A stretch of 64,000 bases of DNA from an uncultured Bacteroidales bacterium (GTDB lineage: Bacteria > Bacteroidota > Bacteroidia > Bacteroidales > VadinHA17), in assembly GCA_963849615.1 (NCBI GenBank), contig CAWKIC010000026.1, positions 48-64,047 of the forward strand. Reading direction: 5' to 3'. The position numbers and the translations under genes were made by a program. The notes beneath the pieces were generated by a model. That model worked only from the letters and a program-made list of their open reading frames with translations. It searched no databases and was not told the DNA's origin. Positions 1 to 64,000 of this stretch are shown one piece after another (position 1 is the stretch's first letter; each line of letters opens with the position of its first letter).

Positions 1-152
1 AGGCGCTGCCGAGCTCTTCGCCTTCGCAATCACGCCGGGGGTGATGAGGAGCGCCATCCCCGCCACGACGGCCATGACGGCGCAAACGAAGATAACCTCC
101 AGGAACTGTAGCCGCCCGAACGGCCAGTCCTTCGCGTGGGTTCGGTGCTCAT
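1..152 (-). pseudogene. Prepilin-type N-terminal cleavage/methylation domain protein (type IV pilin or T2SS pseudopilin-like). 5' part only, runs off the window edge, 1-nt frameshift.
   Basis: Minus-strand ATG at 152 gives MSTEPTRRTGRSGG. After a 1-nt shift at a short T-run (about 104-105) it reads YSFLEVIFVCAVMAVVAGMALLITPGVIAKAKSSAA. This is the G/YSFLE motif plus a hydrophobic helix. Confidence 0.4.
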
Positions 153-364
153 CGCGGTCATGCGAGTCAGTGGGGCAACTCCCGTTCCAGGGATCCCAAC
201 GAGTCAAGCCCCATACCGGTCTTCCAGTTACGGATGTTTGGCGCGTGCACCGGCCCTGGGCCGCACTTACGGTTTGGTGTCTGAATCTTCAGATTTGGCG
301 TGGCGGCGCTCTGCGAAGGCGAGGAGGCCCGGCGGCGTCGCGTATAATCCCGCCGGTCGGTTGC

Positions 365-960
365 ATGCCGTCCGCAACACACGTCGCTTTCTGCGGGCTG
401 TAAATGTCGGTGGTCGCAACAGCGTGTCCATGCGGGCGTTGTGCGACGTGCTGGTCGACGCCGGCATGCACGATCCGGACGCTGCTCCAGAGCGGCAACG
501 TCGTGTTCTCCTCGCGGTGCGGGCCATCGCCTCATTGGAACGCACAGTGGAGGAAGCCATCCTCATCGGCTGGGGGTTTCGCGGCGTCTTCGTCCGGACC
601 GCGCGCGAGTGGCAGGCGATCTGTGAAGCGAATCCCTTTCCGACCGAGGCGGCACGGGATCAGGGCATCTGCTGGTCCTCTTGCTGAAGCACCCACGAGC
701 GCGAAGGCGGTCGGCGAGCCCTACGAGCGCGCGATTCTGGGCGCGGAGAGCGTTGTCCGGGAGCTGGCCGTCATCTCTACGCCGTGTATCCCGACGGAAT
801 CGGCCGGTCGCGCCTCACGACGAGCCTGATCGAGACCAAGCTCGGAACCCAGGTGACGGGGCGCAACTGGAATACGGCAGTGAAGCTGCTTGCCTTGGCC
901 AATCAGCGGGTTGAGCCGCGTCCGCGCACTGTCGATTACGGAGTTTCGCCGTCGCGATAA
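365..960 (+). pseudogene. DUF1697 family protein, multiply frameshifted
   Basis: Fragments of one protein are spread over three frames: MPSATHVAF, LRAVNVGGRNSVSMRALCDVLVDAGMHD, LLQSGNVVFSS, LERTVEEAILIGWGFRGVFVRTAREWQAICEANPFP and LYAVYPDGIGRSRLTTSLIETKLGTQVTGRNWNTAVKLLALANQ. The stop is at 958-960. NVGG, QSGNVVF and RNWNT are family hallmarks recalled from memory. Confidence 0.6.
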
Positions 961-1106
961 CCATCCGGTGATTCGGCGCGGGGTCGCTCTTCCTCGGGCC
1001 GCGTACGCCAGCGGGTCCAGGCCGCACTCTACCGCGCCAGTCGATGCGCGGAGTGTGGCAGCATTTCTGCACAGGGGTCGGGTGGAACCGTCCGCCATGT
1101 CGCCCG

Positions 1107-1860
1107 ATGAGTAAGAACCTGTCGCAACTACTACCGGCTGCTTCACGTGCAGCCGGATGCTCCGACCGCGGTCATCAAGTCGAGCTACCACGCGGTCATG
1201 CTCAAGTTGAAGCAGCATCCCGATCTCGGGGGCGAGCCATGATGACGCTGCCGCTGCTGAACGAGGCGTATGCGGTGCTGACCAATCCGGCCCGGCGCGC
1301 ACAGTACGATCGCGAGCTGCAGGCGCGGGTATCGAATGCTACCACCGGCTCCGGGCCCCTCACCCGGCAAGCCGGCAGCCGGCACACGAGGAATCAGCAG
1401 CCGCTGAAGGAGAGGTCACAACCGACCGCCAGCAGGGCCCGACGTGTGCGTTTTGTGACGCGCCGAGGCCCCCTTCGGTGCTGCCGCGGGATCGCGCTGC
1501 GTCCGGTGCGGCAGTCCGCCTGTGCTCCCCTGACCGCCGGCACCAGGGCGGGGGACGAACGTACGACGCCGCGCGTCGCACGTGGCGGCGCGGTCACACT
1601 GACCGAGCGCGCGTCACGCGCGCGGGTGCGCGCGGTCATCCGCGACTTGTCACCGTCCGGCATGTGCGTGAGCGTGCCGGAACACCGCTGGCCGAAAACC
1701 ACGTGGTGCGCGTCGACGGCGCCGCGCTCACCGCGGTGGCCCGAATCGTCAGTTGCCGCCGTGCGGACGCCCGGGGCGCAAAGGGCTACCTGGTCGGCAT
1801 CGAGTTCATGACACTGGAGTTCGCGCGGCCCGCGGCTCGCTCGTCGACTTGCGGACGTAA
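1107..1860 (+). pseudogene. J-domain / zinc-ribbon / PilZ-like protein, multiply frameshifted; 3' end uncertain
   Basis: YRLLHVQPDAPTAVIKSSYHAVMLKLKQHPDLGG carries the HPD motif. LLNEAYAVLTNPARRAQYDRELQ lies in another frame. There is a CAFC...RCGSPLC-like segment. VRAVIRDLSPSGMCV and VVRVDGAALTAVARIVSCRRADARGAKGYLVGIEFMTLEF (PilZ-like) sit in two frames. Confidence 0.5.
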
Positions 1861-1916
1861 CGACACTGCTCCCGCTGCGACCGAAGGCCGGCGTCCCGAC
1901 ACCAACCGGCGCCCCT

Positions 1917-2106
1917 TCAGCGCCCGTGGTGTTCGCGCCAGAGCATCGTCGCCAGTGTTCCGGTGACGATCATCGCGACGCCACTCCACCACACCGGAAT
2001 CGGCATTCCCGCCGGCGACCGCCTGGACGTCGAAAATGACGCGCAGCAGGTGCGCCACGGTCATGAGCACGAGCAGGACGAAGGTGAGCAAGGTTGCCGG
2101 TTTCAT
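1917..2106 (-). CDS. Small two-helix membrane protein (about 63 aa) with one frameshift near 2010
   Basis: AGGAGGAA lies 5 nt upstream of the ATG at 2106 (minus strand). The translation is MKPATLLTFVLLVLMTVAHLLRVIFDVQAVAGG, then after a 1-nt shift MPIPVWWSGVAMIVTGTLATMLWREHHGR, with the stop at 1917-1919. Confidence 0.45.
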
Positions 2107-2928: not shown

Positions 2929-3999
2929 ATGAATAAGATAACATTTATTATAATTCTTTCTATACCCCTGGTCTCCTGTGCGAATGAACAAAGAAAGAGT
3001 AAAGATGAGTTTTTTGTATTCGAACCCGATATAAGACTCTTTACCAGCTACGCATTTATGAATGCCGCAGGTTATGGCCATGACTGGAATGCTACAATGC
3101 ATCCGGTCAGGACTGAAGTCAGGGAATACCTAGATTCAATACTGACCGATGACTATAAAAATGAAATTCGGCAGTATTATGAAAAATTTGGAGGTGGAGA
3201 TTTTTACGGATATGGCGTATATGCAATCAATTCGAAAAATCCGCCGGAATTCGGGTTGATATCTGATTCCTGCCGTAATGAGGATATAGCCAGGTTCGAA
3301 TCTTACGATTCCCTGCTACAGGATTTCTACGAAAGAGCAAAAATAGCTATACTATGGGAACGGTATTATCAGAGACTCTATGAGATAAACCTGCAATATA
3401 AACCGTTTGCAGAACTCGCCATAAAGCAAATAACGAAGTATTGCGGTGTGGATTCCGGTTATTTCCGGAATAAAGCCAATGGTAAGTTCCACTATCAGCA
3501 AATTCCCTTAATGTCGCACTTTACGGCCTTCTTTCATGAAACAGGGAATGATTACTGGGTTATAAGCGGCCCCTCAACCGGAGCACCAGATGCAAGCGCA
3601 TTTTATCACGAACCTCTTCATAAAATAATAAATCCGATCGTTGAGGGAAATTCGGAGATTAATATGAAGATAACTGATCTGGCTGATCTCGCACAGGAAA
3701 GACTACAGGGCAACTATAATGGTGTTACTTCAATACTATGTGAATCATTTGTAAGAACAATTGACAGAATTTTGTATGCCCGGTATAATAAACTCTCTGA
3801 AAATGAACTCCGGGAGGTAGTAGAGGATGAATACAGGCTTGGCCATATTCTGTCGTTTTATCTGTTGGAAAATCTCCCCGAGTATGAGGCTGGCAATAAA
3901 ACACTGCAGGAATACTATCCGGAATTGATTTCAAATATTGATGTCGAATATGAAAAAATGAGATGGAAATCCTATTGGAAAAGTCGGGAAGCTAGTTAG
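2929..3999 (+). CDS. Hypothetical lipoprotein with an HExxH motif
   Basis: 356-aa ORF with a signal peptide and lipobox (IILSIPLVSC) and the motif FYHEPLHKI (HEPLH). I do not securely recognise the family. Confidence 0.6.
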   Translation: MNKITFIIILSIPLVSCANEQRKSKDEFFVFEPDIRLFTSYAFMNAAGYGHDWNATMHPVRTEVREYLDSILTDDYKNEIRQYYEKFGGGDFYGYGVYAINSKNPPEFGLISDSCRNEDIARFESYDSLLQDFYERAKIAILWERYYQRLYEINLQYKPFAELAIKQITKYCGVDSGYFRNKANGKFHYQQIPLMSHFTAFFHETGNDYWVISGPSTGAPDASAFYHEPLHKIINPIVEGNSEINMKITDLADLAQERLQGNYNGVTSILCESFVRTIDRILYARYNKLSENELREVVEDEYRLGHILSFYLLENLPEYEAGNKTLQEYYPELISNIDVEYEKMRWKSYWKSREAS

Positions 4000-5451: not shown

Positions 5452-6310
5452 TTATAACTTTTCTCCGGTCAATTTTGTGCCTGTCCCATCCTTTTCAATT
5501 ACATCAATAATCCTGTTGAACAATAGCTGTGCTGCTTTGGCTGCAAATTCTCCATTGGGATGGGAATCCCGCGGGAGAGGAGGCATACTCTTCCTTAAAA
5601 TATAATCCTCCCCCGGTTTCCAGGGTATAAAGATCCCATATATGAATATTATCACCGGGTAAGTCCCATTCGCTTGTTACCCATCCGAAAAATTCTTGCG
5701 CTCTTTTGGCTTCATCTTCTTTTACAGCTCGATTTCACCTGAGCAGCACCGGTAAAGAGGATAAATTTTGTGTCAGGAAATTCATGAAGCTTTATCTCTT
5801 AAAGCCAGCATATTGCAAGCTTATAGTTTGCCAGCGATTTGTAGTCAGAGTTGATGTCAGCCGGTGTCCTTATCAGCCTGGATATTGCTAACGGGAAAAC
5901 AATGTTTGAAAATTATTACCTGGTATTGCTTTGTCAGCATTTCCAGGGTCGGTTCCTCCATAAAAGGCTTATTACCTGCATTCTTAACCCATATGTTGTA
6001 ATAATCATAGGGATAGTTATGCCATCCGTAGGAGATGCTTTCGGAAATATCATCTCTTTTAATGAGATAGTTCTTGTTGTTCTCTTCATTATACTTATCA
6101 AACAATTGGGCAAACGGCTTTAGCATATAAGTCTGCTGCTTTGTACTCAACTATTCTGCGTGCACTAGTTTCGAACTGACTTTCTTTGACACCACCGGTA
6201 CTGTGATAACAAGTGATATTCATATCAGATGTTCTTTCTTTCTGCCAGAATAAGCACCAACCAGTACTAAGTGATGAAGATAAATTAATGTTCATATATA
6301 AGTCTTTCAT
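5452..6310 (-). pseudogene. Hypothetical protein split into at least 3 ORF fragments, possibly a GDSL/SGNH-like hydrolase
   Basis: Collinear minus-strand fragments at 6098..6310, 5857..6150 and 5452..5655. The C-terminal RDSHPNGEFAAKAAQLLFNRI resembles the SGNH block V (DxxH). The family call is weak. Confidence 0.35.
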
Positions 6311-6996: not shown

Positions 6997-7830
6997 CCTG
7001 TTACGCTGAAAAGATTCAGAAACCTGTGAAGATCAGTATCATTGAATACATAACTGAATGTAAAATTCCCGGTCGGACCGGCAAACCTTATGCTTTTCAT
7101 AAAATCAGAAAAACCAGTTATAATTTCTTTGGACCCATTTGTCCTGCCGCTGAAATAAATAACCTCATCCTGACTTATATTCATCCTTTTGAGAACATAA
7201 AAAACATAGTACTGGATATCAGAGATTGTCTTGTAATGAAATGTGTTACAGAATTCCAGTGCGTTCTGATCAAAAATAATGAGATTAAAGAAGCCTCTTT
7301 CAAGGTGAACATGGATATAATATTTACCTGCTGTCCTCCTGTTTCCAACGATGTACTGGAAGAGGGGTTTTAACTGATGGCTGCAATCCGATTTTGGAAA
7401 GAATCGCTTTAAAAGTTCTGAGGTTGAGCCGGGAAGTGAGAAAATAATAACGGCATCCGGATCCGGAAGCAAATTTGTAGCAATAATTTCTCCTTCACGA
7501 CTTATCTGATTGAATGTAAAGAAATCTTCTTTTTTTGAGTACGTCAAACAGCGCCGACGGCACCAGCGTGGATCCGGGTGAAGGGGTAATAAGGTTAATT
7601 TTTTTATACCGTCTGGTAAGAAAATCATCGTTTGCTATTATTTCACCGATCTTTCCATTATCCAGATAGCCATTGTCATCTGGTTCATAATCTCTTAACA
7701 GGATAAACTTGTTACGGAGGGTATCAAGAATAGAGTAGGAGAGGCCATCATAGCTTACCTGAACGGATAACTCATAGTTCTCAGTTGAGTTTATATCAAG
7801 AGTTTCATCGAATAATTCCAGAAAAGGCAT
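6987..7830 (-). CDS. DUF3822-like protein, split by one frameshift around 7500-7620
   Basis: ORFs 7495..7830 and 6987..7628 are collinear and overlapping. A position immediately upstream of rsmD is what I recall for DUF3822 in Bacteroidota. The stop overlaps the rsmD start. Confidence 0.45.
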
Positions 7831-12423: not shown

Positions 12424-12971
12424 TTTCTCGCAGAGTTCTCGCAGATTTAAATCCGCAGAGTCTCGCAGAGTCCCTCGCTCCCTCGCTCCCTCGCTCCCTC
12501 GCTCAAATCGGAAATCTCCTGTTATTTGAAAAGCCAAAAGTCCCCTTTAGGGGATTTAGGGGTGGTCTGTTGTTTGGTTCTCGCAATTCTCGCTGATTTA
12601 AATCCGCAGAGTCCCTCGCTCCCTCGCTCCCTCGCTCCATCTCTCCCTCTCCCTTTCTCCCCTTCTCCCTTTCTCACCTTCTCTCCCTCGCTCCCTCGTT
12701 CCCTCGCTCAAATCGGAAATCTCCTGTTATCTGAAAAGCCAAAAGTCCCCTTTAGGGGATTTAGGGGTGGTCTTCTTTTTATTTCTCGCAGATTTTCGCT
12801 GATTTAGAGTCCGTCGCTCCCTCGCTCCCCCGCTCCATCTCTCCCTCTCCCTTTCTCCCCTTCTCCCTTTCTCCCACTCTCTCCCTCGCTCCCTAGCTCC
12901 CTCGCTCAAATCGGAAATCTCCTGTTATCTGAAAAGCCAGAAGTCCCCTTTAGGGGATTTAGGGGTGGTCT
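12424..12971. repeat. Three tandem composite super-units of about 145, 205 and 198 bp
   Basis: Each super-unit has, in order: ttctcgcaga..aaatccgcagag; (CCCTCGCT)n; optionally ccatctctccctctccctttctcc..; (CCCTCGCT)n; and caaatcggaaatctcctgttatctgaaaagccaaaagtcccctttaggggatttaggggtggtc. Confidence 0.9.
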
Positions 12972-13840
12972 TACCTCATCAGAAGTCTCATACATCTACT
13001 CAAACCCGATCTCCAGTGAGGTATCTCAATAGTGTAATTCTCCTTTATTTTACTTTTATCAAGAACAGAATAAAACGGTCGTTGAACGATTGATGGATAC
13101 TCTTTCGACAGGATCGGGACAACCCTGCATTTTAATCCTGCTTCAAGAACTATTTCATTTGCAAGATCATACCAGCTGCATACACCCTCATTTGAATAGT
13201 GGTAAATTCCGGCATTGAAGGCAATCTGGTTCCTTATCACCCTTGAGATTATTAACATGATTGTATCGGCAAGATCAGCCGCATAGGTGGGAGTACCGGT
13301 CTGATCAAATACAACCCTGAGTGAATCTTTCTCCGCACCGTTCTTTAGAATTGTCTTAACAAAATTATTGCCCCAGGAAGAGTATAGCCATGATGTCCTG
13401 AGTATTATGGACAGATAGTGGGTTAATGCAAAACGTTCTCCTTCGGACTTTGATTTTGCGTAGGCTGATAATGGATTGGGCACTGAGTATTCGTTATATG
13501 GGACGTTCGATTTCCCGTCAAACACATAATCTGTCGAAATATGAATAAGCCTGCACTCTGATCCTCTAATGGCGGTTACAATGTTTTTAACACCGGCAGC
13601 ATTAACCAGCATTGCTTTATCAGGCTCTGACTCAGCCTTATCAACAAAATTATAGGATGCACAGTTAATAATCCAATCGGGTTTGTTTTTGCTGATAAAT
13701 TCTTTGACTTCCTTTTCGATTGTAACATCAAGTGTTTCATTATCAGTGAAGATATACTCATAACCGAAATAGTTCTTCGATGAAACCCTGAGTTCACTTC
13801 CGAGCTGACCCGATGCACCTGTTACTAATATGACCGCCAT
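12971..13840 (-). CDS. rfbD: dTDP-4-dehydrorhamnose reductase
   Basis: 289 aa starting MAVILVTGASGQLGSEL, with STDYVFDG. It sits in the rfb context. Confidence 0.9.
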   Translation of the reverse strand: MAVILVTGASGQLGSELRVSSKNYFGYEYIFTDNETLDVTIEKEVKEFISKNKPDWIINCASYNFVDKAESEPDKAMLVNAAGVKNIVTAIRGSECRLIHISTDYVFDGKSNVPYNEYSVPNPLSAYAKSKSEGERFALTHYLSIILRTSWLYSSWGNNFVKTILKNGAEKDSLRVVFDQTGTPTYAADLADTIMLIISRVIRNQIAFNAGIYHYSNEGVCSWYDLANEIVLEAGLKCRVVPILSKEYPSIVQRPFYSVLDKSKIKENYTIEIPHWRSGLSRCMRLLMR

Positions 13841-13885: not shown

Positions 13886-13996
13886 TCCTCTCCACCTCTC
13901 CCCTAAATCCCACTCCCCCGTGTGGGAGGGGCTTAAAAACCAGTAGTTAAGCCCCTCTCACTCCGGGAGAGGGGGATTTAGGGGGTGAGGTGGAGG
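13886..13996. repeat. About 110-bp composite palindromic element (family J)
   Basis: The terminal inverted repeats are cctccacctctcccctaaatccc and gggatttagggggtgaggtggagg. They enclose two hairpins, CTCCC ccgtgt GGGAG and CCCCTCTC actccgg GAGAGGGG. Confidence 0.85.
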
Positions 13997-14547: not shown

Positions 14548-14604
14548 TTAGTTTGTTTAAAAAGTTTTACTTGCTGTGTACTGGTTTCTTGTTGCAACTG
14601 AACC

Positions 14605-14653
14605 CGCAACCCGCAACACGCAACCAGCAACCAGCAACCAGCAACCAGCAACC
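14605..14653. repeat. 7 tandem 7-mers (C/A)GCAACC
   Basis: cgcaacc cgcaaca cgcaacc agcaacc x4, read directly. Confidence 0.9.
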
Positions 14654-15589: not shown

Positions 15590-15846
15590 AAACTTTCCCC
15601 TCGTCTCTTAGTCCCTTAGTCTCTTAGTCCCTTAGTCTCTTAGTCGCTCCCTCGCTCCATCGCTCCATCGCTTTCTTCCCCTCGTCTCTTAGTCCCTTAG
15701 TCTCTAGTCGCTCCCTCGCTCCCTCGCTCCCTCGCTCCCTCGCTCCCTCGCTTTCTTCCCCTCGTCTCTTAGTCCCTTAGTCTCTTAGTCTCTTAGTCCC
15801 TTAGTCTCTTAGTCGCTCCCTCGCTCCCTCGCTCCCTCGCTCCCTC
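15590..15846. repeat. Three super-units of (CTTAGTC[C/T])n followed by (CCCTCGCT / CCATCGCT)n
   Basis: Alternating blocks of two 8-mer microsatellites, read directly. Confidence 0.9.
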
Positions 15847-17158
15847 ACTTCCTCCCTATCCCGAAATACTCAAACCCCTGTCTTTTAATCTCCGCAGGAT
15901 CGTAAATATTCCTGCCGTCGAAAATGACTCTGGTGCTCATCAGCTCAGACATTTTCCTGAAATCAGGAAGGTGGAACTCCGCCCATTCAGTCATAAGCGC
16001 CAGTGCATCAGCCCCTTTAATGGCATCATAGGGATCGGTAGCATAATAGATCTGGTTCCCGCGCTGCTTTTTGGTTTCTTCCATGGCTTCCGGATCATAC
16101 GCTCTGACAGTTGCTCCTGCGGCGATTAGCTTGTCAATGAGGTGGAGAGATGACGACTCCCGGATATCATCAGTTTTGGGTTTAAAGGATAATCCCCAGA
16201 TCCCTATAGTCCTGCCCTTCAGACTATTGTTGAAATACTTATTCATCTTGTTGAATACCACATTTTTCTGATATTCATTTGCTTTTTCAACTGCTGTAAT
16301 GACTTTAAGTTCATAACCGTGATCGGATGCTGTTTTAATAATTGCCTTAACATCCTTTGGGAAACACGATCCGCCGAATCCGGCGCCGGGATAAAGGAAC
16401 TTACTTCCGATCCTGGAGTCGCTTCCTATGCCCTTTCTGACATTATTGATATCGGCTCCGAGGATCTCGCAAAGATTGGCAAGCTCATTAATGAAGCTTA
16501 TCCGGGTGGCCAGCATTGAATTTGCAGCATATTTCGTAAGTTCGGCTGAGGCAATATCCATCAACAGAACAGGATGGTTATTGAGCACAAAAGGATTATA
16601 GAGCCTTTTCATAAGCTCTCCTGCTTTTTCATTATCAACCCCGATTATTATCCTTTCAGGTCTCAGAAAATCTTCAACAGCTGCTCCTTCCTTCAGGAAT
16701 TCAGGATTTGAGGCCATGTCAAAAGAGACATTAACTTTCCTTTTATCAAGCTCCGCCTGGATTGTATGTCTTACCTTTTCGGCTGTTCCAACGGGAACTG
16801 TGCTTTTAGTGGCTATTACGACATATTCATTCAGTAATCTTCCTATATCGGCGGCGACAGCCAGAACATGTTTCAGATCAGCGCTGCCATCCTCACCCGG
16901 GGGGGTACCGACAGCAATGAAAATTATTTCAGATCCGGTTATATCTCCGATATTGTTTGTAAAAATAAGCTTTCCCTTTTCAACATTCCTTTTTAAAAGC
17001 GGCTCAAGACCCGGTTCAAAGATGGGAACTGTTCCGTTTTGAAGAAGCTGAATTTTCCTGATGTCATTATCTACACAAACGACATTTACTCCGCTCTCGG
17101 ATAAACAAGTGCCCGTGACCAGTCCCACATAACCGGTACCAATAACTGCAATCTTCAT
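15845..17158 (-). CDS. ugd: UDP-glucose 6-dehydrogenase
   Basis: MKIAVIGTGYVGLVTG starts at 17158, and GGSCFPKD is present. The track ORF extends upstream to 17245, but that part is repeat-adjacent and unlikely to be coding. Confidence 0.9.
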   Translation of the reverse strand: MKIAVIGTGYVGLVTGTCLSESGVNVVCVDNDIRKIQLLQNGTVPIFEPGLEPLLKRNVEKGKLIFTNNIGDITGSEIIFIAVGTPPGEDGSADLKHVLAVAADIGRLLNEYVVIATKSTVPVGTAEKVRHTIQAELDKRKVNVSFDMASNPEFLKEGAAVEDFLRPERIIIGVDNEKAGELMKRLYNPFVLNNHPVLLMDIASAELTKYAANSMLATRISFINELANLCEILGADINNVRKGIGSDSRIGSKFLYPGAGFGGSCFPKDVKAIIKTASDHGYELKVITAVEKANEYQKNVVFNKMNKYFNNSLKGRTIGIWGLSFKPKTDDIRESSSLHLIDKLIAAGATVRAYDPEAMEETKKQRGNQIYYATDPYDAIKGADALALMTEWAEFHLPDFRKMSELMSTRVIFDGRNIYDPAEIKRQGFEYFGIGRK

Positions 17159-17257: not shown

Positions 17258-17520
17258 CGCTCCCTCGCTTCCTCGCTCCCTCGCTCTGGGTTATCTACCT
17301 GGAACTTTTTATTTCTCGCAGAGTATCGCAGATTTAAATCCGCAGAGTTTCGCAGAGTCGCTCAAGTCGGAAATCTCCTGTCATCCGAAAAGCCAAAAGT
17401 CCCCTTTAGGGGATTTAGGGGTGGTCTGGCGAATCCGAAAAGTTTCGCAAAGTTTAATCCGCATATTTTCGCAGAATCCTTCTCCCTTTCCTTCCCCTTC
17501 GCTTCTTCGCTCCCCATAGC
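17258..17520. repeat. Composite repeat of the same module order as 12424-12971, plus degenerate copies
   Basis: (ccctcgct)n is followed by tttctcgcagagtatcgcagatttaaatccgcagag and then gctcaagtcggaaatctcctgtcatccgaaaagccaaaagtcccctttaggggatttaggggtggtc. Confidence 0.85.
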
Positions 17521-17580
17521 CGATCTTAAGTGGTTGTCTGTCGTGGGTTACAGTGAAAGTAATTTTAACTAGTTAACTCA

Positions 17581-17727
17581 AGTTGCTAGTTGCTGGTTCC
17601 TTGTTACTGGTTAGTTGTTGATTAACAGAATAATAAGCGATTTTGTTAAAATGTATTAAATATTTTTGCATTTATCATGATGCTCATTATCAAATAACTA
17701 GCAACCAGCAACAAGCAACTAGCAACT
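17581..17727. repeat. Long imperfect hairpin with arms built from tandem 7-mers (GTTGCTN / NAGCAAC) around an AT-rich loop of about 70 nt
   Basis: The left arm is agttgctagttgctggttccttgttactggttagttgttg. The right arm is caaataactagcaaccagcaacaagcaactagcaact. Confidence 0.8.
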
Positions 17728-17749
17728 TAGGTTAGTTAGTATATGATTG

Positions 17750-18146
17750 ATTTCTCGCAGATTTTCGCAGATTTAAATCCGCAGATTTTCGCAGAACGGA
17801 AGCTCCTCTTATTGCAGAAGCCAAAAGTCCCCTTTAGGGGATTTAGGGGTGGTCTGGGTAATCTGCAGAGACTCTTTGAGTTATTGGATAAAGCCAAAAG
17901 TCCCCTTTAGGGGATTTAGGGGTGGTCTGTGTAATCCGCAGTGTCTCTTTGAGTTATTGCAGAAGCCAAAAGTCCCCTTTAGGGGATTTAGGGGTGGTCT
18001 GTGTAATCCGCAGTGTCTCTTTGAGTTATTGGATAAAGCCAAAAGTCCCCTTTAGGGGATTTAGAGGTGATCCGGGATAAAGCCAAAAGTCCACTTTAGG
18101 CCTGCCTGCCAGTAGGCAGGGGATTAGGGGTGGTCTGCTTCTTCCT
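17750..18146. repeat. cgcagat module followed by about 4.5 tandem 72-bp units, each containing the family-A palindrome
   Basis: Family-A cores begin at about 17829, 17901, 17973, 18047 and 18090. The last has a gcctgcctgccagtaggcagg hairpin inserted in its loop. Confidence 0.9.
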
Positions 18147-43523: not shown

Positions 43524-43615
43524 ATAGCGGCACGAAGCGACCTCTGAGCCGATCTTAAGAATACAGTTTTTGAATGAGATTACTGTAATTGGCTGAATGC
43601 AAATATAATATAAGT

Positions 43616-43823
43616 TTCCCCTCCTTTTCAAGGAGGGGTGGCCGGGACATTGATTTTAAAGCGTTACAATTTGCTTTCCGGCCGGGGTGGTTGATTTATG
43701 TTTCAAGACTCTTTGAATAAACTAATAAGAAAGCCTAGTCAACCACCCCGGCCAGACGAATTTAGTTACTGCGGTTAAAATATTTCACCGTCTGGCCACC
43801 CCTCCTTGAAAAGGAGGGGAAAG
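43616..43823. repeat. About 208-bp nested inverted-repeat element
   Basis: The outer pair is tttcccctccttttcaaggaggggtggccgg (43616-43645) and ctggccacccctccttgaaaaggaggggaaag (43792-43823), each itself a palindrome. The inner pair is ccggccggggtggttga (43679-43694) and tcaaccaccccggccag (43739-43755). Confidence 0.85.
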
Positions 43824-43904
43824 TAAATTGATTGTATCTCAGCTAGTTGGATTTCTAAGTCTATGGCATTCCTTAAGATGCAGCTATGGACCGAACCCCC
43901 CTTC

Positions 43905-60290: not shown

Positions 60291-60381
60291 GCGAAACCCG
60301 GGACAGGAATTTGACGGCGCCTGATTTTTATTCTGATTATTTCGGAGGTTTTCATATTTTTACCTTTTATTGATCTGTAAA

Positions 60382-61155
60382 ATGGTGCTTGATATCAAGG
60401 TTCTGGATATAATAGATATTTTCCTTGTGGCATTTATTCTCTTTCAGCTTTATAAGCTTATAAGAGGGACTGCAGCATTGAGCATCTTTATCGGCATCTT
60501 CTTTATTTACATGTTCTGGCTTTTGGTCAAAGCTCTCAAGATGGAGCTGATAAGCGCTTTACTCGGCCAGGTAATTGGCGTTGGGGTTATTGCCCTCATA
60601 ATCGTATTCCAGCAGGAGGTGCGGAGGTTCCTGCTTGTTATAGGGAACAGATATATGAGCAGGCGAAGATTTTCGTTCGGAAAAATATTTTCCGTCGTCG
60701 AAGATGAAGAGAGTAATCCGAAAGAAGCTGAGGAGATTGTCAGGGCTGCCGAATCAATGGCCTCCAAGAAAACCGGAGCCCTTATCGTTCTTGGAAGGAA
60801 AAGCAGCCTCGATATTTATTCAGAAGGGGGAGAAAAACTCTATGCAGAGATTAGCGCAGAACTTCTCGAAACTATTTTCTTTAAAAATTCTCCATTGCAC
60901 GATGGAGCAGTTTTAATTGAGGACGGCAAAATATTTGCAGCCCGCTGCCCTTTGCCTATCACCGACAGGGTGTCGCTTCCCTCGCATTTCGGTATGAGGC
61001 ACCGTGCCGCTCTGGGCATTTCAGAACATACTGATGCGCTGGTAATTGTCGTATCAGAGGAATCGGGTACAATAACCGTAGCCGAAGCAGGCGAGGCAAG
61101 GGAAAGGATAACTCCAAATGAACTCCGTCAGATCCTTCTCAAAGAAAAGATCTGA
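60382..61155 (+). CDS. cdaA: Diadenylate cyclase CdaA (DisA_N domain)
   Basis: Three N-terminal TM segments, then GALIVL, PLHDGAVLI, GMRHRAALGISEHTDALVIVVSEESG. The track ORF starts at a TTG at 60370. Confidence 0.85.
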   Translation: MVLDIKVLDIIDIFLVAFILFQLYKLIRGTAALSIFIGIFFIYMFWLLVKALKMELISALLGQVIGVGVIALIIVFQQEVRRFLLVIGNRYMSRRRFSFGKIFSVVEDEESNPKEAEEIVRAAESMASKKTGALIVLGRKSSLDIYSEGGEKLYAEISAELLETIFFKNSPLHDGAVLIEDGKIFAARCPLPITDRVSLPSHFGMRHRAALGISEHTDALVIVVSEESGTITVAEAGEARERITPNELRQILLKEKI

Positions 61156-61175
61156 GGAATACCTGGTACCTGTAA

Positions 61176-63105
61176 ACACGTACTCACCCCCTTTTTCCCC
61201 CTCTCTACTAGCGTAAAGAGGGGGATGCCCCACACGTACTCACCCCCTTTTTCCCCCTCTCTACTAGCGTAAAGAGGGGGATGCCCTGGTATATTTAATT
61301 GATATTATATATATATTTATGGGTCGTTAGTTATTGTACACACGTACTCACCCCCTTTTTCCCCCTCTCTACTAGCGTAAAGAGGGGGAGGCCCCTGGTA
61401 TATTTAATTGATATTAATATATTTATGAGTGGTTAGTATTGTACACACGTACTCACCCCCTTTTTCCCCCTCTCTACTAGCGTAAAGAGGGGGATGCCCC
61501 TGGTATATTTAATTGATATTAATATAATTATGGGTCGTTAGTATTGTACACACGTACTCACCCCCTTTTTCCCCCTCTCTACTAGCGTAAAGAGGGGGAT
61601 GCCCCACACGTACTCACCCCCTTTTTCCCCCTCTCTAAGCGCAGGCTGGCTCCTTCGCTAAATTTGCCCACCGGGCAAATTTTTAACGCTCGGCCCTGTA
61701 AAGAGGGGGAGGCCTTTGGTATACTTAATTGATATTCTATTATTTATGAGCCGTTAGTATTGTACACACGTAGCTCACCCCCTTTTTCCCCTTCTCTAAG
61801 CGCAGGCTGGCTCCTTCGCTAAATTTGCCCACCGGGCAAATTTTTAACGCTCGGCCCTGTAAAGAGGGGGAGGCCTTTGGTATACTTAATTGATATTAAA
61901 ATATTTATGGGTCGTTAGTATTGTACACACGTACTCACCCCCTTTTTCCCCCTCTCTACTAGCGTAAAGAGGGGGATGCCCCTGGTATATTTAATTGATA
62001 TTAATATAATTATGGGTCGTTAGTAATTTACACACGTACTCACCCCCTTTTTCCCCCTCTCTACTAGCGTAAAGAGGGGGATGCCCCTGGTATAATTAAT
62101 TGATATTTATTTATTTATGGGTCGTTAGTATTGTACACACGTATTCACCCCCTCTTTTTCCCTCTCTAAGCGCAGGCTGGCTCCTTCGCTAAATTTGCCC
62201 ACCGGGCAAATTTTTAACGCTCGGCCCTGTAAAGAGGGGGAGGCCTTTGGTATACTTAATTGATATTAAAATATTTATGAGTCGTTAGTATTGTACACAC
62301 GTACTCACCCCCTTTTTCCCCCTCTATACTAGCGTAAAGAGGGGGATGCTCCTGGTATAATTAATTGATATTTATTTATTTATGGGTCGTTAGTATTGTA
62401 CACACGTACTCACCCCCTTTTTCCCCCTCTATACGCGTAAAGAGGGGGATGCCCTGGGTAAGAGTTAGAATATTTAGGAATGCATATCCTTCGAATTAAG
62501 AATGAGGAGTTAGTCGATTTAAAAAGTGTCATTAACAAAATAGAAAACTATCTTCTTTCAATTACCTAAAGTAATTATTATCTACAGGGCTATCGCCCCC
62601 TCTTTACGCAGTAGAGAGGGGGCAGGGGGGGTGAGTACGTGGGGCGGCTTGAGAAGGGATTTTTCCTGCGAAAGGGTGTTAAGGAGAAGAAATAGATTGC
62701 TCCTGGATCACACGTACTCACCCCCTTTTTCCCCCTCTCTACTAGTGTAAAGAGGGGGATGCCCCTGGTATATTTAATTGATATTAATATAATTATGGGT
62801 TGTTAGTATTGTACACACGTACTCACCCCCTTTTTTCCCCCCCCCTACTAGCGTATAGACTGGTATATTTAATTGATATTAATATGATTATGGGTCGTTA
62901 GTAATTTACACACGTACTCACCCCCTTTTTCCCCCTCTCTACTAGCGTAAAGAGGGGGAGGCCCCTGGTATATTTAATTGATATTAATATATTTCGTTAG
63001 TAATTTACACACGTGGTCACCCCCTTTTTCCCCCTCTCTACTGCGTAAAGAGAGGGGGAGGCCTTTGGTATACTTAATTGATATTCTATTATTTATGAGC
63101 CGTAA
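61176..63105. repeat. Tandem array of 16 direct units plus one inverted copy
   Basis: The 56-nt core is acacgtactcaccccctttttccccctctctactagcgtaaagagggggatgcccc. A spacer of about 50 nt follows, tggtatatttaattgatatt..tatgggtcgttagtattgtac. Cores start at 61176, 61232, 61340, 61445, 61550, 61606, 61766, 61927, 62032, 62137, 62297, 62402, 62710, 62815, 62910 and 63009. Unit lengths are 56, about 105 and about 160 nt. No ORF of 60 aa or more lies on either strand. Confidence 0.95.
62587..62642. repeat. Inverted-orientation copy of the array core
   Basis: gggctatcgccccctctttacgcagtagagagggggcagggggggtgagtacgtgg is the reverse complement of the core consensus with a few changes. Confidence 0.9.
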
Positions 63106-63200
63106 TTATTCTTGTAGTAAAATCAAAGAAACTTGATTTCAAAGAGATCCAGGACCATTGCTTCATTTTCAGACAAAATATGACAGAGTTATTACACAAA

Positions 63201-63224
63201 GCTATCACCCCCTCTCTACGCAGT
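63201..63224. repeat. Second inverted core copy, truncated in its hairpin loop by the IS insertion
   Basis: gctatcaccccctctctacgcagt aligns with 62590-62613 and ends exactly where the IS end begins. Confidence 0.85.
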
Positions 63225-64000
63225 CTACCCTTTATACACATCTTTTCTTTTTAAGTATTCTAAAGCCATTTGGAACCCGTCAGCCTTATCATAAAATCTA
63301 TCAGTTCCATCTTTAATATGATATATATCCAGGTGGTCCCTGAGATTGATAGCCACTCCATCCACCTAGTCTTCCCATGGCCCAGGTAGCCCATTGAAGA
63401 GAACCTTTTTCATATGGATTTTTGAGCTTTTCGGTTTTCCCTTCAAGCTTCTCCATATAAATTGAAAGAAAATGTAATTGTTCTTTTGAAAAGATAATAT
63501 TCGCATTAACCTTATGAGTATTTGATGAGTGATAATTTCAATGTCATGGTTGTCAATGCTACTTGTAAAGCTATGACAGCAAGTTTTTTAAGTCCTCCAC
63601 CTGTCTCTAATTGAGATTCTTCAATAGCTAATCCTTTACTCTTTAAAACACGGAATAACTCTTCTATAAACCATCTTTGACTGTACCATTCAACACATTT
63701 AAGTGCATCCTCAGCACATTCAATTGAATGTGTTGTTAACAATCTCCATAAAACAGGATCTTCTTTGCCAGGTACACTCTCTGGGAGCTCTCTTGCTTCA
63801 ATGGCCCACATCTCAACATAGCTTGGCTTATTCTCAAGAGGTCTGTTCTTAGGATGTTTTATTTTTACTTTCTCATACTTTAAGGACATCTTTGCTTTTC
63901 GTTTTACCCTTTTACGATTATTGCGGATATCAAGCTCATAACTTGCTCTTCTGCTCTGAAGAACTTAACTTTTCAAATAAATTTTGATCTTCTCCCCACA
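63225..64000 (-). mobile_element. IS4-family (Tn5/IS50-like) insertion sequence; one end plus a decayed transposase; continues beyond the window
   Basis: The terminal 19 nt, CTACCCTTTATACACATCT (63225-63243), are identical to IR-L of the 31513 element. The transposase C-terminus ends a few nt inside. Confidence 0.8.
63244..64000 (-). pseudogene. Tn5-like DDE transposase (IS4 family), C-terminal part, with stop codons and frameshifts
   Basis: [46 protein letters not shown] carries the YxxRWxIE signature. After the stop at 63512, KNPYEKGSLQWATWAMGRLGGWSGYQSQGPPGY follows, then another shift. An additional in-frame stop lies at 63965-63967. Confidence 0.8.

Follow-up and report, generated by a model that had tools for sequence, protein, structure and literature searches.

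A tandem array downstream of cdaA in an uncultured Bacteroidales bacterium is probably the amplified left end of a decayed DUF559 nuclease cassette

We analyzed 64,000 nucleotides (hereafter the window) of contig CAWKIC010000026.1 from an uncultured Bacteroidales bacterium (GCA_963849615.1), focusing on a tandem array that begins shortly after the diadenylate cyclase gene cdaA (60370..61155, plus strand; Pfam DAC 3.9e-42, CdaA_N 2.7e-18). The array occupies positions 61176-63105 and, as counted in the assembly, consists of 16 direct copies of a core that opens with ACACGTACTCACCCCCTTTTTCCCCCTCTCT and closes with AAAGAGGGGG. This number, put forward in an earlier note made from the sequence alone (the original prediction), was confirmed by a parse of the units and by a search for the 16-nt core head. 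Units start at 61176, 61232, 61340, 61445, 61550, 61606, 61766, 61927, 62032, 62137, 62297, 62402, 62710, 62815, 62910 and 63009. The core head matches the window 16 times against 0.14 expected from shuffling, 15 times directly and once inverted (62627-62642); the unit at 61766, which carries a 1-nt insertion, was found with a regular expression. The core hairpin matches 10 times with at most one mismatch (0 expected in the window). Unit lengths fall into classes of 56, 95-108 and 160-161 nt, much as predicted, except that the unit at 62402, formerly listed as core-only, adjoins the remnant of a gene. Tandem Repeats Finder reported periodicities of 56, 105, 161 and 370 nt. The last is a higher-order duplication (61698-62454; 2.0 copies, 93%) that bears out the block duplications noticed before, and the variable AT-rich stretch after the core was likewise seen in the unit parse. 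The longest open reading frames (ORFs) within the array reach 44-52 aa and none attains 60 aa, in agreement with the prediction.

The locus had been read as one continuous array. It consists instead of two blocks separated by approximately 250 nt of non-repeat sequence (62458-62709), and the elements lying between and beyond the blocks had been missed. In order, cdaA is followed by 12 left ends of a cassette built around a DUF559 nuclease gene, a C-terminal remnant of that gene, an inverted right end, a 58-nt fragment of corA, four more left ends, an N-terminal DUF559 remnant, half a right end and an insertion sequence (IS). In block A (61176-62457, plus strand), nine of the 12 direct left termini carry the AT-rich region of approximately 50 nt found upstream of DUF559; the exceptions are the core-only units at 61176 and 61550 and the unit at 62402, which is joined by a deletion to the 3' part of the gene. 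The remnant of this first cassette (62462..62569, plus strand) encodes residues 95-129 and the stop codon (tblastn 97% over 35 aa, E = 8e-17) and is also matched by the family profile (E = 8.8e-11), the promoter and residues 1-94 being deleted. Its right terminus is the inverted core at 62594..62642 (minus strand), collinear with positions 2074-2122 of a locus with an intact cassette, L008. Next comes the corA 3'-end fragment (62643..62701, plus strand), which matches L008 at 1494-1550 and again at 2125-2181; the body of corA is absent from the window, where tblastn with corA matches this fragment alone. Block B (62710-63105, plus strand) holds four direct left-terminus units of 105, 95, 99 and 97 nt and has variants and the unit-to-unit junction in common with block A. 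Its second unit, at 62815, has a decayed hairpin and shows homopolymer-type damage. The remnant of the second cassette (63114..63188, plus strand) encodes residues 1-25 without the start codon (tblastn 84% over 25 aa, E = 1.8e-9) and is collinear with L008 1555-1736. It is followed by half of a right-terminus hairpin (63206..63224, minus strand), where AGCTATCACCCCCTCTCTACGCAGT running into CTACCC... agrees with the right end of L008 as far as the loop. The loop is cut there by a decayed IS (63225..64000, minus strand) that has the end CTACCCTTTATACACAT, encodes a frameshifted DDE transposase (ORF 63512-63889; Pfam DDE_Tnp_1, E = 1.6e-4) and extends past the window edge. A profile built from 120 DUF559 relatives found these two remnants and no further copy in the six-frame translation of the window.

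Locus L008 provides the intact counterpart. There, the 3' end of corA is followed by a core, approximately 50 nt of AT-rich sequence, a 129-aa DUF559 ORF, an inverted core and, at the end, a second and slightly diverged copy of the final 58 nt of corA. Identity between the array units and L008 1555-1657, a segment comprising the core and the region upstream of the DUF559 start codon, is 90-95%. This match to terminus and leader, together with the DUF559 remnants and the inverted right terminus, identifies the array as the left end of a cassette, and the corA fragment in the window is the very sequence that was duplicated when the cassette inserted in L008. At the level of sequence comparison, the window is thereby shown to hold two decayed cassettes of the L008 corA-site lineage, with left end and leader multiplied 12-fold in one and fourfold in the other. 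The original prediction was right in seeing a repeat locus; the repeated unit, as it turns out, is a cassette end with its upstream region.

Intact cassettes measure approximately 0.6 kb and are bounded on both sides by an inverted terminus of approximately 46 nt. The left terminus comprises CAYGTACTCACCCCC, a spacer of 3-6 nt and a 12-bp imperfect hairpin (CCCCCTCTCTAC/GTAAAGAGGGGG), and it is followed by an AT-rich leader of approximately 50 nt with a TATATTTA box; the right terminus mirrors the left and ends in GGGGGTGAGTACATG. The ATG of the nuclease gene is preceded, at a distance of 18-30 nt, by a TAnnTTTA box. The -7 promoter element of Bacteroidetes has the consensus TAnnTTTG, and we take the box before DUF559 to be such an element. 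Intact cassettes were present in no fewer than 8 independent Bacteroidales contigs; their proteins are 63-100% identical, and the neighbor genes vary among corA, lgt, hydF/MBOAT, a SusD locus, dnaG/epimerase and a permease/esterase pair. Genomic contexts were fetched for proteins 63-94% identical to that of L008 (L010, L011/L012, L013, L014/L015, L016-L023 and L024), and further DUF559 genes were present in metagenome loci L030, L033, L047, L058 and L059. In all DUF559 loci examined in Bacteroidales, the gene is bracketed by the same inverted termini, which stand out against shuffled sequence at z = 12-21. At least one genome, GCA_022865305.1, carries two different cassettes. At L002, an inverted doublet still encloses a piece of the DUF559 3' end, which marks it as an internal-deletion derivative resembling a miniature inverted-repeat transposable element (MITE). 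At L010, a DUF559 3'-end fragment (approximately 3850-3897) immediately precedes an intact cassette on its left-terminus side and suggests recombination or inversion between termini of neighboring cassettes.

The encoded protein belongs to a sizable family. The L008 ORF matches PF04480 (DUF559) with 98.7 bits against a gathering cut-off of 20.6, and its relatives (676 matches at E <= 1e-10) include hundreds of proteins of approximately 129 aa from environmental Bacteroidales. Among 120 relatives, 74 are exactly 129 aa long and residues D65, E76, D78 and H82 of the catalytic D...E-x-D...H motif are invariant; the fixed length and invariant residues indicate that the nuclease is under constraint. 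The closest solved relative is a Neisseria 'endonuclease-like protein' (3HRL, E = 8e-11), and the homing endonuclease I-Bth0305I, which has the Vsr fold, is also matched, though weakly (PDB 3R3P, E = 0.08). The ycjD gene of E. coli is also annotated as a DUF559 member.

Outside the array, the core is a dispersed repeat. When one genome per GTDB species was searched for exact matches to a 22-nt stretch of the core, nine contigs were retrieved. Each belongs to a metagenome-assembled genome (MAG) of uncultured Bacteroidales, Bacteroidia or Rikenellaceae from fen, soil and similar samples. In these contigs the core is dispersed singly, directly after stop codons, and in many cases an inverted copy 25-170 nt away completes a doublet. 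Its stem is 12 bp long and imperfect, with a conserved C.A mismatch. Folded as DNA, the hairpin reaches -9.8 kcal/mol on the plus strand (z = -2.8) and -11.7 kcal/mol on the minus strand (z = -3.5) and is the minimum-energy structure on both. This folding, suggested as a check at the outset, did not recover the alternative CCCCCTTTTT pairing, which is absent from both the minimum-energy and the centroid structures. Across 22 non-redundant cores, 97% of alignment cells pair against 43-70% with the partners slid, and the covariation score of the stem exceeds all 500 shuffles. One stem pair is A-U in 14 copies, G-C in 8 and broken in none, so the hairpin appears to be maintained by compensatory change. 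The layout of the core recurs in the window element at 13952-13992 (hairpin, ATTTA, GGGGGTGAGG), as had been recognized before. Rfam 15 at the gathering threshold gave one tRNA in the whole window and nothing at the array, and a permissive Rfam scan of the locus gave nothing relevant, its sub-threshold microRNA matches mirroring the inverted cores at 62594-62755. Finally, the loop of the hairpin appears to be the target of an IS: the end CTACCCTTTRTACACAT sits in core loops at three independent sites, in the window, at L003 (2321-2337) and at L009 (287-303). In the window, the DDE_Tnp_1 transposase of this IS is split into several short ORFs, through either decay or homopolymer errors.

Evidence that the cassette can move comes from L065, which lies on the same MAG contig as L010 and its 94%-identical cassette after lgt. 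L065 has a corA orthologue (84% amino acid identity) whose 3' end joins directly the sequence found in L008 after the second corA fragment. It therefore represents an empty site, relative to which L008 has gained approximately 0.6 kb plus a target duplication just downstream of the corA stop codon. The duplicated copies in L008 are 58 nt long and identical at 54/58 positions; L065 has one copy.

Beside cdaA, the array seems to be a recent arrival. Relatives L061-L064 retain the gene order 1502-aa gene, TIM, MauE, tmk, folP, cdaA, and blastn synteny with the window ends at 61155-61160. CdaA orthologues 98, 95 and 89% identical are followed by spacers of 456, 162 and 175 nt after the stop codon, with no array; in the closest relative, L061 (approximately 93% nucleotide identity over folP-cdaA), there are only degenerate inverted core fragments. 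This comparison, also proposed at the outset, indicates that the array at cdaA is recent and lineage-specific. The L061 spacer (5775-6230) is made of a third repeat family, CCCCTCCTT..AAGGAGGGGTGGCC, which also occurs in the window at 43554-43889; the region downstream of cdaA is a landing site for repeats in this lineage.

Amplification of this kind was not confined to the window. Metagenomes were searched for pairs of direct termini spaced 92-122 nt, and of the 36 contigs obtained about 10 carry genuine arrays of the same element. We observed five units of 113-136 nt in L025 and L031, three 93-nt units adjoining an intact DUF559 gene in L059, a two-copy array of the same element variant in L046, and three partial left ends of 49-51 nt directly upstream of an intact gene in L047. 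Four 46-nt half-cores precede a full core in L039, partial units measure 34 nt in L058, two-copy arrays occur in L034, L036/L056, L051, L055 and L060, and in L024 the right end is partly triplicated. In the 8 arrays with a unique upstream flank, the repeat begins 1-9 nt before GTACTCAC, which places its start 0-6 nt outside the conserved terminus, with periods ranging from 34 to 160 nt. If breakpoints were random in units of approximately 100 nt, the chance of each such coincidence would be about 0.1, as a rough estimate and not a formal test. The anchoring of starts at the end despite differing periods favors a process initiated at the terminus, and the 370-nt higher-order repeat and the variants common to blocks A and B point to unequal crossing-over thereafter.

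Overall, we consider it likely that the array arose by tandem amplification of the left end of a decayed DUF559 cassette and is a selfish-DNA minisatellite derived from the end of a mobile element. Under this scenario, after the insertion of a cassette behind corA with its 58-nt target duplication, a first duplication would have been anchored at the cassette terminus. The likeliest cause would be a stalled fork or a break at the terminus, possibly made by the cassette's own nuclease, and its repair with re-copying of the end. The array would then have been expanded and shuffled by unequal crossing-over and gene conversion among its units, and recombination between dispersed cores may have moved it beside cdaA. 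Several points weigh against this account. No significant flanking target duplication was found at 8/9 cassettes, L008 alone having one, and related genomes hold cassettes at the same site (L011 and L013; L016-L023), from which we conclude that cassette movement is probably rare. Both the 16 copies and the physical link between cdaA and the array are as given by the assembly, in which only 1.7-3.7 kb separate the array from the end of the 64.8-kb contig, itself terminated by an IS. A corA fragment within an array adjoining cdaA implies either a mis-join at the repeat or an extra rearrangement in which dispersed cores recombined. Lastly, the presence of an array in two assemblies, the window and L066, could mean that it is maintained for a reason.

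Some of these points would equally follow if a long-read assembler had expanded or mis-joined a repeat, the true locus having fewer units or lying after corA. The proximity of the array to the contig end (at most 3.7 kb) and the terminal IS, the corA fragment in a window without corA, and the homopolymer-type damage at 62815 are all compatible with such an artefact, as is the inability of short-read contigs to span the array: Logan contigs fragment within the repeat and give no copy number. The units nevertheless differ by substitutions and indels in a block-wise pattern, and independent short-read contigs contain both kinds of junction. One Logan contig covers the cdaA-to-core junction (60992-61185) with one mismatch, and another, of 135 nt, spans the unit-to-unit junction at 62031/62032 at a depth of 16.4x against 3.45x for the flank, i.e. 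about fivefold. A further counterpart is L066, from a different assembly and a different study (GCA_049283055.1), where an intact corA 86% identical to that of L008 is followed by at least 2.5 array units of 105 nt before the contig ends inside the array. The block B junction between units, GTTAGTAATTTAC followed by ACACGTAC, is identical in L066, where it reads GTTAGTAATTTAC followed by ACACGTACTC; hence the tandem arrangement is not a product of the assembly of the window, its ancestral home is the corA insertion, and we regard an artefact as highly improbable. An exact search for the unit-to-unit junction in Joint Genome Institute (JGI) metagenomes gave 0 matches, the array in L066 having been reached through corA, and blastn with the array found no match in a plasmid collection.

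The original prediction had named, as one of three options, a tandemly amplified locus resembling repetitive extragenic palindromic (REP) sequences or bacterial interspersed mosaic elements (BIMEs). Part of this stands, since a dispersed REP-like hairpin has indeed been amplified in tandem. In the full form of this rival, palindromes spread and maintained by a REP-associated tyrosine transposase (RAYT) would be domesticated by the host for transcript stabilization, termination or the binding of DNA-topology proteins. Like E. coli-type REPs, which are imperfect palindromes of 20-40 bp, the core is a dispersed extragenic imperfect palindrome; it follows stop codons, covaries, forms inverted doublets 25-170 nt apart as in REPINs (paired REPs), and receives an IS in its loop, much as is reported for IS1397 and ISKpn1 in E. 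coli REPs. The array is not a BIME, however, because its 16 copies are direct and not alternating, the right ends of the two cassettes being the sole inverted cores, and the palindrome edge of the core bears no GTAG or CGTC tag. The GTAG noticed near the stem on the minus strand is present and lies inside the loop-proximal stem, not at the REP position; the terminus is CATGTAC, and the conserved outer motif CAYGTACTCACCCCC is 20 nt from the stem. The gene between inverted cores is DUF559 in every case examined, and no Y1/RAYT gene was seen in the window or the loci examined, whole genomes lying outside the scan. Taken together, a domesticated REP/BIME-type cluster appears unlikely. We hold a comparably low opinion of an array of small transcription units, in which the TATATTTA promoter of each unit of approximately 105 nt would fire into the hairpin of the next core to yield short RNAs or a multi-promoter region. 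Full units do hold a homologue of the promoter and leader of DUF559, in 5 units the core is succeeded by a weak terminator-like hairpin AGGGGGATGCCCCT and then T-rich sequence, and the array occurs in two assemblies. The variation between units is nonetheless concentrated in the putative -7 box, which several variants break, and this looks like decay and not selection. In addition, no Rfam family matches, close relatives do without the array, and neither sigma-70 promoter-like sites (8 vs 4.9 +/- 2.3 shuffled) nor terminator-like sites (5 vs 2.6 +/- 1.6) are clearly above expectation. The sole RNA run with matching words, metatranscriptome X7, contained neither the organism's cdaA nor the core and is uninformative on transcription. 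Each full unit still holds a decaying copy of the likely promoter of the nuclease gene, the gene itself is destroyed at both blocks, and the array as such probably has no host function.

Three further candidates were rejected. A sigma-54 promoter reading of CTGGTATATTTAATTGA, made by eye, has a spacing off by one and lacks the GC. A CRISPR array does not fit, as the inter-core segments are themselves repeats (approximately 90-95% identity) and some cores abut, and an iteron or replication-origin reading was ruled out on anatomy.

We also compared the cassette with known systems. The REPIN/REP-RAYT systems offer a close parallel in their short, extragenic, dispersed palindromes, their inverted doublets and the small nuclease gene between inverted repeats, and also in that an IS targets the hairpin and repeats cluster in places (Bertels & Rainey 2011, PMC3116915; Di Nocera et al. 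2013, PMC3733652). They differ in the enzyme, which is a Y1/HUH transposase in RAYTs and a PD-(D/E)XK, Vsr-like DUF559 protein here, and in that the array repeats terminus plus leader directly. RAYTs are described as typically present in one copy per genome (PMC5581495), unlike the two different cassettes of GCA_022865305.1. Furuta, Abe & Kobayashi (2010) described restriction-enzyme genes with long imperfect inverted repeats and no transposase, moving by 'insertion with long target duplication', and stated as unknown whether the nuclease is its own transposase (PMC2853133). The cassette resembles those units in its gene of restriction-endonuclease fold and its inverted repeats, with a target duplication longer than 30 bp at L008 only. 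It differs in lacking a methylase, in having termini that belong to a high-copy dispersed hairpin family with non-autonomous derivatives, in the absence of flanking duplications at 8/9 loci, and in end-anchored tandem amplification, which is not described there.

Bacterial MITEs include the Correia elements of Neisseria and Nezha in cyanobacteria. The inverted-terminus doublets of approximately 120-260 nt without a coding gene, some of them internal-deletion derivatives such as L002, are reminiscent of MITEs, and the terminal inverted repeats with filled (L008) and empty (L065) sites are reminiscent of class II elements in general, yet there is no consistent target-site duplication and the parent encodes a Vsr-like nuclease in place of a DDE transposase. 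Vsr-fold homing endonucleases, free-standing or intron-borne, such as I-Bth0305I (PDB 3R3P) share the nuclease fold, the catalytic motif region and a selfish lifestyle; the sequence similarity is weak, and their genes are without hairpin inverted repeats or dispersed repeat families. For the array itself, the best comparison lies in eukaryotes, where satellite and minisatellite DNA can arise from the termini of transposable elements. As in those satellites, a terminal segment is multiplied into a non-coding array beside decayed copies; in contrast to them, the array is bacterial, its units start at the exact terminus, and the phenomenon recurs at independent loci of one family.

We also looked for inverted repeats around more distant DUF559 genes (32-43% identical), taken from a plasmid collection and, as ycjD, from E. 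coli K-12, by comparing the complementarity of 250 nt upstream and 250 nt downstream with shuffled controls. Significant flanking inverted repeats were present at 5/5 Bacteroidales loci (z 12-21), 3/3 Deinococcus loci (z 9, 19 and 31) and 2/4 cyanobacterial loci (z 6 and 52). None of 7 proteobacterial loci, including ycjD and N. gonorrhoeae, was significant, so the association is confined to certain clades. The best cyanobacterial case, in Pseudanabaena, has 40-nt arms that are 100% complementary. Across clades, the arms consist of a C-run (often CACCCC), a short spacer and a C-rich hairpin, and the cyanobacterial arm AAGTCCCC..GGGGATTTAGGGG is the motif of a second repeat family in the window. 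The inverted repeats around distant DUF559 genes suggest a RAYT-like role for the nuclease. A published list of predicted inversion targets shows a 14-fold enrichment of 'DUF559 domain-containing protein' (PMC9881135), which fits genes bracketed by inverted repeats. We tentatively raise the possibility, on which we would not yet rely, that DUF559 nucleases are the cognate enzymes of widespread REP-like CACCCC-spacer-hairpin repeats in Bacteroidota, Cyanobacteriota and Deinococcota. The nuclease would then recognize or cut the repeat terminus, and repeat spread, inversions, insertions with long target duplication and end-anchored arrays might all follow. In the literature searched on DUF559, Vsr-like proteins, COG2852, SNR, REP/RAYT in Bacteroidetes and the repeat sequences, with subscription journals mostly outside its scope, neither the cassette nor its termini nor the DUF559-REP link was described. 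The element had not been recognized as a described one by the prediction either, and the link between DUF559 and REP-like hairpin repeats is apparently undescribed.

Other repeats were observed alongside. The 160-nt array unit is a 105-nt unit with a 61-nt structured module in the core hairpin loop (61638..61698, plus strand; identical copies at 61799-61859 and 62169-62229). The module consists of AGCGCAGGCTGGCTCCTTCGCT, an A-tract, the hairpin GCCC-ACC-GGGC, a T-tract and AACGCTCGGCCCTG, its inner stem covaries between copies, and it has no Rfam entry. It also occurs at L064 3823-3876, L008 approximately 296-350 and L001 approximately 7653-7683, in the loops of different repeat families. Soil metagenomes cover it at 10-100x the depth of the flanking sequence, and it is also present in a metatranscriptome. 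The module is an element in its own right, dispersed and of high copy number, and could be a small mobile terminator-like element or a small RNA. The GGGGATTTAGGGG motif occurs 12 times in the window against 0.17 expected (sites 7876, 12550-12965, 13900-13984, 17409-18067 and 59182). Within its family, 3.6 tandem copies of a 73-nt unit lie at 17809-18069 and 2.5 copies of a 198-nt unit at 12474-12972, and the motif also flanks DUF559 genes on plasmids of Pseudanabaena and Picosynechococcus. At L045 (6700-7560), a GC-rich metagenome contig holds about 40 tandem copies of the 17-nt TGTGTACTCACCCCCAG, which shares the terminus motif GTACTCACCCCC. Dense intergenic microsatellites on the minus strand of the window are built of octamers (TCCCTCGC, GTCTCTTA) and heptamers (AACCAGC, AACTAGC) at 12471-12907, 14601-14653, 15603-15854, 17258-17286 and 17696-17727. 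Finally, window positions 1-2000 have a GC content of 67% against approximately 42% in the rest and include an ORF for a DUF1697 protein (136-687); horizontal acquisition or a chimeric start of the contig may account for this part.

Many bacterial genomes are rich in short GC hairpin repeats, and the enzyme behind such repeats is known only for the REP/REPIN families, namely RAYT. Here, a repeat family, its non-autonomous derivatives, a hairpin-targeting IS and tandem arrays are tied to one small gene. Arrays of this type also interrupt the assembly of metagenomes: the L066 contig stops within one, and the contig of the window ends 1.7 kb after its array. By itself the array is of moderate interest, and the cassette family, as a possible RAYT-like partner of repeats in three phyla, is the more interesting lead. 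If the nuclease does act on the termini, this would give a function to the large DUF559 family and explain the origin of several repeat families, including those around DUF559 genes in Deinococcus and cyanobacteria. It would also provide a tractable bacterial model of how the ends of mobile elements turn into satellite-like arrays, and DUF559 would constitute a second, structurally unrelated counterpart of the RAYT-REPIN partnership.

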